In this document: positions 11,436-62,278 of the stretch, piece after piece
Position numbering within the stretch: position 1 is the first letter of the stretch
Layout: every line of letters begins with the position of its first letter
Origin: Felis catus
Taxonomy: Eukaryota
Length of the DNA: 64,000 nucleotides
NCBI RefSeq assembly: GCF_018350175.1
Contig: NC_058386.1
Span: 22,258,001 to 22,322,000, forward strand
Direction of reading: 5' to 3'
Notes under the pieces: generated by a model
What the model saw: only the letters and a program-made list of their open reading frames with translations
What the model was told of the DNA's origin: nothing
Databases searched by the model: none
Translations under genes and position numbers: made by a program

Positions 11436-11658
11436 TTTTTTTTTTAATTTTTTTTTCAACATTGATTTATTTTTGGGACAGAGAGACAGAGCACGAACGG
11501 GGGAGGGGCAGAGAGAGAGGGAGACACAGAATCGGAAACAAGCTCCAGGCTCTGAGCCATCAGCACAGAGCCTGACGCGGGGCTCGAACTCACGGACCGC
11601 GAGATCGTGACCTGGGTGAAGTCGGACGCTTAACCGACTGCGCCACCCAGGCGCCCCC
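11436..11658 (-). mobile_element. Young felid SINEC (SINEC_Fc type)
   Basis: CpG-rich, near consensus: ggctcgaactcacggaccgcgagatcgtgacc...gactgcgccacccaggcgcccc. Confidence 0.97.
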
Positions 11659-45263: not shown

Positions 45264-45358
45264 GGGTGCCTGGCTGGCTCAATTGGAAGAGCATGCAACT
45301 CTTGATCTAGGGGTCGAGAGTTTGAGCCCCATGTTGGGTGTAGAGATTACTAAAAAAC
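45264..45358 (+). mobile_element. Short CAN-SINE
   Basis: gggtgcctggctggctcaattggaagagcatgcaactcttgatc. Confidence 0.92.
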
Positions 45359-45367
45359 AAATAAGCT

Positions 45368-45585
45368 AGGGTGCACCTGGCAGCTCAGTCAGTTAAGCAA
45401 CTCTTGATTTTGGCTCAGATCATGATCTCGCGATTCATAGGTTCTAGCCCTGCATGGGGCTCTGCGCTTATGGTGCAGAGCCTGCTTGGGATTCTCTGTC
45501 TCCCTCTCTCTCTCCCCCTCCCTCACTCGTACTGTCTCTGCCTCTCTGAAAATAAATAAATAAACTTAAAAAAATATTAAAATAT
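45368..45585 (+). mobile_element. CAN-SINE
   Basis: gctcagtcagttaagc...ggctcagatcatgatctc; CT tract; A tail. Confidence 0.94.
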
Positions 45586-45852
45586 AACCAAAAAAATAAC
45601 ACTTATAAAGGGGCCCCTGGAAACATAACAACACAAGAAACAACAGGTGTTGGTGAGGATGCAGAGAAAGGGGAACCATCCTGCACCACTGGCGGGAACG
45701 CAAACTGGTGTAGCCACTCCAGAAAACAGTAAAGAGGTTCTCAAAAAACTAAAAATATGATCCAGCAATTGCACTACTAGGTATTTACACAAAGGACACA
45801 AAATACAGATTTGAAGGGGCACATGCACCCCAATGTTTAGAGCAGCATTATC

Positions 45853-45888
45853 ATCGCTTCTCGGCCTTTTGGCTAAGATCAAGTGTAG
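45853..45888 (+). pseudogene. RNU2: 3'-truncated (tailless) U2 snRNA retropseudogene, U2 nt 1-36
   Basis: ATCGCTTCTCGGCCTTTTGGCTAAGATCAAGTGTAG matches the U2 5' end; perfect 15-bp direct repeat tagagcagcattatc. Confidence 0.96.
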
Positions 45889-45908
45889 AGCAGCATTATC
45901 AACAACAG

Positions 45909-46091
45909 NNNNNNNNNNNNNNNNNNNNNNNNNNNNNNNNNNNNNNNNNNNNNNNNNNNNNNNNNNNNNNNNNNNNNNNNNNNNNNNNNNNNNNNNNNNN
46001 NNNNNNNNNNNNNNNNNNNNNNNNNNNNNNNNNNNNNNNNNNNNNNNNNNNNNNNNNNNNNNNNNNNNNNNNNNNNNNNNNNNNNNNNNNN
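45909..46091. other. Assembly gap (183 N)
   Basis: N run. Confidence 1.
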
Positions 46092-46471
46092 GACATGGAT
46101 GGAGCTCAACTGTATTATGCTAAGCAAAGTAAGTCAGAGAAAGACAAATACCATATAATTTCACTCATATGTGAAATTTAAAAAACAAAACTGATGAACA
46201 TATGGAAAGGGGGGAAAAAGAGCAGAGGGGGAAACAAACCACAGGGGACTCTTAGCAAAAGAGAACAAACTGAGAGTTGACTGAGGGAGACAGGTGGGAG
46301 ATGGACTAGAAGGCTGATGGATATTAAGGAGGGCACTTGTGATAAGCACTGGGCCTTGTATTTAAGTGAGAAAACACTGAATTCTACTCCTAAAACCAAT
46401 ATTGCACTGTATGTTAACTGAAATTTAAATAATAAAGAAAAAGAAATTTACAGTAAAAAAAAAATACATAA

Positions 46472-46563
46472 GGGGCACCTGGCTGGGTTAGTCAGAAGAA
46501 GACACTCGACTCTTGGTAACATTGGGTGCAGAGATTAATTAAATAAATAAGTAAACTTAAAAA
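46472..46563 (+). mobile_element. Short CAN-SINE, deleted
   Basis: ggggcacctggctgggttagtcag...ttgggtgcagagatta. Confidence 0.85.
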
Positions 46564-47105
46564 TTTTCTCCAACTCACATTTTTCTAATTGGTCTAAGAT
46601 ACATCAGTCACATTTACCGTGACATCCAAATCCACTCCTAAGAGATTGGTAGTATTACCTAGCATTAGTATATTTATAGCTTCTTGGACTGAGAGCTGAA
46701 CATGTAGGTACATAAAGTTGGAGCCTGCCTGTTGTTTATGTACATTCACATATAATTTTGACCAATACAAGAAAACTAGACAGAAAGAGGTCCAAAAGAG
46801 TGTACTTCAGATATTAATTTTAGATCTCTCTTGCTATGGACTTCATAAATGAAATTATTTCTTAAAATCATCAGTCTACCCACACTCTTCTCATTCTTTG
46901 TCTCCTCCTCCTCGTTCCCCTCCTCCTCTTTTTTCCCCAACTCCATCTCTCAAATGGAAAATGACAATGATTTTCAAGACATATATTGCTAACAAATAAG
47001 TCAATGAATAATTGAATAAAATGATGCAACACTTAAGGTGCTTAGGGAAAACCCCAAACCTGGCTTTGCCTTTTCTAGCTTAGCAGATCAACACACAGTT
47101 CGAAG

Positions 47106-62018: not shown

Positions 62019-62278
62019 TTATTTTTTATTTTTTTATTTATTTATTTTTTTATTTTTTTTAAATTTTTTTTTCAACGTTTTTTATTTATTTTTGGGACAG
62101 AGAGAGACAGAGCATGAACGGGGCAGGGGCAGAGACAGAGGGAGACACAGAATCAGAAGCAGGCTCCAGGCTCCGAGCCATCAGCCCAGAGCCTGATGTG
62201 GGGCTCGAACTCACGGACCGCGAGATTGTGACCTGGCTGAAGTCGGACGCTCAACCGACTGCGCCACCCAGGCGCCCC
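62019..62278 (-). mobile_element. Young felid SINEC with long T-rich tail
   Basis: CpG-rich near-consensus body; ends ...gactgcgccacccaggcgcccc. Confidence 0.97.

Follow-up and report, generated by a model that had tools for sequence, protein, structure and literature searches.

Tailless, 3'-truncated copies of the U2 snRNA have long been known in mammals, and Van Arsdell 1981, Denison and Weiner 1982, and Schmitz 2004 are said, by papers that cite them, to have dealt with this class. The accessible text of Noll 2015 (PMC5322556) counts, with duplicates removed, 471 such U2 copies in dog, 666 in human, 638 in mouse, and 246 in cow, and Kojima 2010 (PMC2912911), in the part available, adds to the literature on them. 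The therian copies in the same text of Noll 2015 are 5'-complete, 3'-truncated, tailless, longer than 30 nt, flanked by a TSD of 8-35 nt, and briefly complementary to their target, all of which is also true of the cat copy described here. The first 8 human and first 8 cow coordinates given there span 32-44 nt, a range that includes our copy, and the consensus site over all RNAs is TT/WAAAAWW, versus TT/TAGAG here in the same notation. Cat is absent from file S1 of that paper, and neither 'felis' nor 'catus' appears in any of the 5 supplementary files searched.

Human truncated snRNA pseudogenes, for which the accessible sections of Doucet 2015 (PMC4476161) propose a 'template choice' model, end in a short single-stranded purine-rich segment after a T, show complementarity at the junction, and lie at L1 EN-like sites whose T is counted into the TSD. 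Our locus shares these features, and by those sections there is no difference in kind. The U6/L1-type chimeras in the available part of PMC4494074 resemble it in that an snRNA is joined directly to L1 in the same orientation, but such template-switch products carry the snRNA at the L1 5' end inside one outer TSD pair, whereas here L1 lies on both sides and the TSD hugs U2 alone, so that the L1 is target rather than co-template and a chimera of this kind was rejected. Crocodilian SINEU elements (Kojima 2015, in the same part of PMC4494074) likewise carry a short U2 5' segment (32 nt in SINEU-3); unlike them, the cat copies have no common body or tail after U2, and each has its own flanks, except for one segmental duplication. 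The U2 copy studied here is thus an ordinary member of a well-described class.

The window that we analysed is a stretch of 64,000 nt of cat DNA. The U2 insertion in it consists of the following features:

45853..45888, + strand: U2 snRNA nt 1-36, 5'-complete, 3'-truncated, without an A-tail (Rfam RF00004; 36/36 against L130, a full-length U2 gene elsewhere in the genome)
45838..45852, + strand: left TSD copy, TAGAGCAGCATTATC (to 45853 with U2 A1), single-copy in 29/29 paralogous L1
45886..45900, + strand: right TSD copy (extends to 45901)
45886..45888, + strand: TAG, with which U2 ends (nt 34-36) and the right repeat begins; overlap of at most 3 nt, likely primer pairing AG or TAG

At 45838-45908 the window reads ...CCCAATGTT, then TAGAGCAGCATTATC, then U2. 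The Rfam match to RF00004 at 45853 (E 9.6e-6) scores 39.9 bits against a gathering score of 46, since the 5' end alone is present, and at the gathering score Rfam gave no match anywhere in the 64,000-nt window. Three weak Rfam matches to other RNA families near the copy (E 0.05-0.98) were taken as chance. The copy is identical to L130 at 36/36 positions and diverges from it at nt 37, and the same 5' start is found in all 8 full-length U2 copies among those listed. The sequence-only reading of this DNA had placed an undiverged U2 nt 1-36 at 45853-45888 between repeats at 45838-45852 and 45886-45900, with no poly-A; its coordinates are exact, and the right repeat overlaps the U2 end with no A-tail. 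It was also right that the two 15-bp repeats are identical, but 15 nt is not their maximum: the 5' junction has an overlap of 1 nt, where U2's first A also fits the target, and counting it gives 16 nt (45838-45853 and 45886-45901). The chance of the 12 repeat bases that lie outside U2 is 7.5e-8 for one register, and the repeat score of 16 compares with a best of 11 among 300 mispaired flanks from other loci.

By the definition of Noll 2015, a tailless U2 retropseudogene may lack up to 5 nt at its 5' end (ours starts at U2 nt 1), is truncated by at least 10 nt at its 3' end and at least 30 nt long (36 of 191 nt here), and has no oligo(A) tail (the U2 end is overlapped by the right repeat). Its TSD measures 8-35 nt (15-16 nt here, identical), its target is complementary to the last 2-18 nt of the RNA in a single-stranded region (TAG, U2 34-36), and the target is of the L1 endonuclease type, for which TT/AGAG is a variant rather than the consensus. 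U2 nt 27-46 are unpaired in the Rfam model, and a bare MFE fold of the U2 gene has nt 30-33 paired and 34-37 open. A functional U2 gene was rejected, as this would need 191 nt, an Sm site, and stem-loops II-IV and the locus has nt 1-36 alone; with neither a promoter nor nt 37-191, the copy is very likely inert. We also rejected a segmental duplicate of another U2 locus, there being one full-length match among 40 scored of 826 candidates.

An N stretch begins 8 bases past the right repeat, and this proximity speaks for an assembly artefact. Both U2 junctions nevertheless lie in called bases, the host L1 continues collinearly beyond it (anchor distance 191 bases, against 71-399 in 27/29 paralogs), and an assembler would have no reason to duplicate 15 nt around a U2 piece that ends where the class typically does. 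An artefact is scarcely credible here. Among sequencing runs, 24 were listed for this region, 20 of them with at least half of its words, under three organism labels; these matches concern the region and carry no information on the insertion.

The insertion lies within an older L1, for which we distinguish these features:

45621..46464, + strand: host L1, 5'-truncated (ORF2 end, 3' UTR, A-rich tail), 9.8% from the per-column majority of 29 paralogs
45605..45620, + strand: candidate left TSD of the host L1, with one indel and one mismatch against the right copy (putative; repeat family D6)
46468..46482, + strand: candidate right TSD of the host L1; the head of a short SINE remnant overlaps it (putative; repeat family D6)
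45840, + strand: G private to this locus (0/29 paralogs; 27 have T and 2 have C), found also in the right repeat at 45888

Paralogs were collected by a search with the left flank, which returned 5,032 candidates; 40 were scored and 29 taken. The host differs from their per-column majority in 59/600 columns (9.8%). It is identified as L1 because a frame of paralog L155 matched residues 1145-1186 of human L1 ORF2p, at its C-terminus, in the PDB (E 5e-13); Pfam searches with three other paralog frames gave 0 families. The repeated stretch is single-copy in 29/29 paralogous L1, as the sequence-only reading had expected of the L1 consensus, and the objection that it had raised against itself, that U2 might be a component of the L1 subfamily, is rejected: U2 is found in 0/29 paralogs and the junction is unique in the genome. 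The 20-mer across the left junction has 1 exact genome match, and its 5 two-mismatch matches are all without U2.

The region at 45605-46565 is nested, with a SINE remnant, a 5'-truncated L1 inserted apparently at its head, and then the U2 copy; two further SINEs lie just upstream, at ~45264-45575. ARAGORN called tRNAs for Gly and Ala at 11568-11652 and 62189-62273 (minus strand), which are likely the heads of tRNA-derived SINEs. We take the SINEs near the loci to be of the carnivore tRNA-derived type.

At its third base, each TSD copy has G, versus T (27) or C (2) in the paralogs. Since both repeats carry a G that is absent from 29/29 paralogs, U2 is likely to have entered a resident, already mutated L1, and the simplest reading of these alignments would be that the resident L1 mutated first and then served as target. 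The private G converts TT/ATAG to TT/AGAG and provides the match to U2 G36. The U2 insertion has 0 changes in 64 informative sites (33 in U2 and 31 in the two repeats), which would have P 0.0013 if it were as old as its 9.8%-diverged host. Comparison with the paralogs, on which both order and age rest, thus supports a U2 insertion younger than the host L1. Its divergence has a median of 1.1% and a 95% upper bound of 4.6%; at the carnivore neutral rate of ~1-2e-9 per site and year, this bound sets an age limit of tens of millions of years. The description of the insertion as fairly young and possibly lineage-informative is therefore weakened by such a bound, and by 56/86 copies in the census below being as perfect.

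The same observations bear on the idea that U2 was captured while the host L1 itself was being inserted, the RT jumping from L1 RNA to U2 at AG/TAG, copying to the cap, and jumping back 15 nt. U2 does lie in the host orientation, the junctions overlap by 3 nt and 1 nt, and snRNA/L1 template switches are described in the accessible part of PMC4494074. We consider such a capture very unlikely, however, since it is at odds with a 9.8% divergence of the host against 0/64 changes in insert and repeats (P 0.0013), with the base shared by both repeats and absent from 29/29 paralogs, and with the same structure at 86/97 unrelated loci.

These loci come from a census of the cat genome. An exact pattern of U2 nt 1-25 gave 298 matches, 147 on the forward and 151 on the reverse strand, against 0 for the reversed control, a count that will include true U2 genes and, being exact, favours young copies. 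We examined the first 100 places listed of the 298, on contigs C1, C2, C10, C11, and part of C13. None of the 100 is a full-length U2, and 75 end at nt 33-36, in agreement with the earlier claim that truncation falls in GUAGUA (nt 33-38), where our copy ends at nt 36. Four places proved to be one segmental duplication, so 3 rows were dropped, leaving 97 unique loci. A TSD was accepted if it had at least 11 nt and at most 2 mismatches; 11/97 loci had none and were dropped (L050, L065, L080 in a microsatellite, L088, L090, L100, L102, L107, L108, L117, and L034). The TSDs of the remaining 86/97 measure 11-21 nt with a mode of 16 nt, and 68 are perfect; TSD and U2 are both perfect in 56/86. SINE TSDs at the same loci (n=31) span 11-25 nt, and the lengths for U2 copies are similar. 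The 3' overlap is 2 nt in 34 of the 86 copies, 3 nt in 12, and not contiguous in 19. The U2 copy in the window is typical of the census in every measure.

Some features of the census deserve separate mention. The four duplicates (L031-L034, C10:50.54-50.77 Mb) are one U2 nt 1-36 retrocopy that was segmentally duplicated together with its flanks, the four copies alternating in orientation and their inverted arms lying ~43 kb apart; the cluster at C10 50.5-50.8 Mb was accordingly rejected as a set of U2 genes. Full-length genes were found instead at L128-L134 (C37:41.64-41.73 Mb), where 12 of them form inverted pairs rather than a simple head-to-tail array and vary at a few 3' positions, and one more full-length copy lies on C21. 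A minor truncation zone at U2 nt 52-60 accounts for 6/100 loci (L042, L058, L066, L067, L097, L106), all with TSDs. At L080 (C2:120154730-120155330), the U2 5' piece sits inside a (GT)n microsatellite, its end GTGT merging into the repeat. The left repeat stops 1-3 bases short of U2 nt 1 in 25/86 copies (20 by one base; for example L052, L056, L074), a gap that may reflect bases added without a template or derived from the cap, or else decay at the end of the repeat.

The target in the window is GTTT/AGAG, pyrimidines followed by purines. We placed 79/86 census loci in the U2 register, dropping the 7 that end outside nt 29-37. These 79 targets are T-rich at 32-34, before the junction, and A-rich after it; they match U2 at A35 in 67/79, at G36 in 32/79, and at U37 (as T) in 27/79, while 12/79 have no A opposite A35. 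The target TAG at 34-36, as here, occurs in 9/79, and SINE sites from the same loci have TT/AG in 1/29 and Y/AG in 2/29. The suggestion that our site is unlike TT/AAAA finds no support in this comparison, as GTTT/AGAG is a variant of the L1 EN site that recurs in U2 copies and in SINEs.

Such a class-wide, L1-type site profile also makes unnecessary an endonuclease-independent origin, in which a staggered double-strand break was patched with U2 cDNA by end joining. The imperfect match to TT/AAAA and the overlaps at both junctions would be expected of such a repair, but the duplication is a clean 15-16 nt with neither deletion nor filler, its length is the mode of the class, and the junction is pyrimidine/purine. 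There is very little likelihood that this locus arose by break repair.

The register further indicates where copying began. In 12/79 loci, the insert has U2's T34 where the target base differs, so that copying began at U34; in 26/79, it retains a non-T target base at 34, so that copying began at G33, and 25 of these have A at 35. For the other 41/79, our locus likewise, both U2 and target have T at 34, and starts at U34 and G33 are indistinguishable. In the accessible sections of Doucet 2015 (PMC4476161), sites of truncated snRNAs are described as similar to the L1 EN site, with the T ahead of the purines assigned to the TSD as a convention; because of this, pairing here may involve AG alone, 2 nt rather than 3. 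The 3-nt TAG microhomology of the sequence-only reading thus holds as an identity between U2 34-36 and the first three bases of the right repeat, and as pairing it is the largest extent possible, with 2 nt (AG) as likely.

Internal priming and the copying of a pre-cut U2 fragment are indistinguishable at a single locus. In the latter case, L1 TPRT would have acted on a pre-existing fragment ending near nt 33-36, left by cleavage or decay and perhaps carrying a few extra A. The very sharp end of the class (nt 33 is the last U2 base before the right repeat in 48/86), the 19/86 copies without contiguous overlap, and the A-rich targets, as expected of any A-tailed template, are in keeping with this. 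Among inserts that stop at G33, however, the base that follows is C or G in 10/25 and the one after that is A in 25/26, a pattern for which pairing at A35 accounts better than addition of an A-tail at nt 33, and G stands opposite G36 in 32/79. Neither such fragments nor oligo-A versions of them appear in the human data in the accessible text of Noll 2015 (PMC5322556). We therefore regard a pre-cut fragment as improbable, and it, capture at host insertion, break repair, and artefact are all less likely than L1 TPRT with internal priming.

The locus holds U2 nt 1-36, 3'-truncated and tailless, between duplicated target copies of 15-16 nt in an older L1, and is very probably a product of TPRT by L1 ORF2p. 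Directly observed are its anatomy, the lack of U2 from paralogous sites, the private base shared by the two repeats, and recurrence at many loci; we infer L1 ORF2p as the maker from TSD length and site profile, with the enzyme and the order of steps taken from the literature. On this model, a T>G change in the resident L1 copy would have created TT/AGAG, where the L1 endonuclease would have nicked the bottom strand. The freed end (...CT or ...CTA) would then have paired with A35-G36 of U2, and perhaps U34, in the exposed branch-site recognition region, and the L1 enzyme would have copied U2 to its 5' end. A second nick ~14-15 nt away, followed by repair, would have produced the duplication. 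The available part of Monot 2013 (PMC3649969) reports efficient L1 priming from 4 terminal matches, with terminal mismatches tolerated only if compensated; the 2-3 paired bases here fall short of 4, which is a point against internal priming, as are the 19/86 census copies with no contiguous overlap and the 12/79 with no A opposite A35.

The accessible text of PMC8302644 describes a toehold, A35-G36-U37, that the U2 branchpoint-interacting stem loop (BSL) exposes in its loop, and simulation in the available part of PMC13167188 suggests that U34 cannot pair while the BSL loop is folded. It is conceivable, if rather doubtful, that priming of U2 copies tracks this toehold, whose first base, A35, is nearly fixed while base 34 is free; our locus, with A35 and G36 matched, fits the pattern. 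Relative to SINE sites, G36 and T37 are enriched with borderline support (p 0.07 and 0.054; 31 SINEs, 29 anchored, worst-case position). A smaller SINE control of 17 sites with the nick position forced gave p 0.005 and 0.008 for G36; we take p 0.07 from the larger control as the fairer figure, and a 17/17 binomial with an assumed background of 0.6 was not relied on. An A at position 35 is also an endonuclease preference, and this is a competing account of the A35 pattern. In literature that covers few subscription journals, our searches gave no paper whose listing connects U2 retrocopy ends with the BSL toehold.

Taken singly, the locus means little for the biology of the cat: it is a 48-base insertion in an old repeat, likely inert, and one of hundreds. 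It could be used as a presence/absence marker if its age turns out suitable. As a class, the U2 copies form a large natural data set on the minimal pairing for L1 reverse transcriptase and on the exposed bases of U2, a modest side question.
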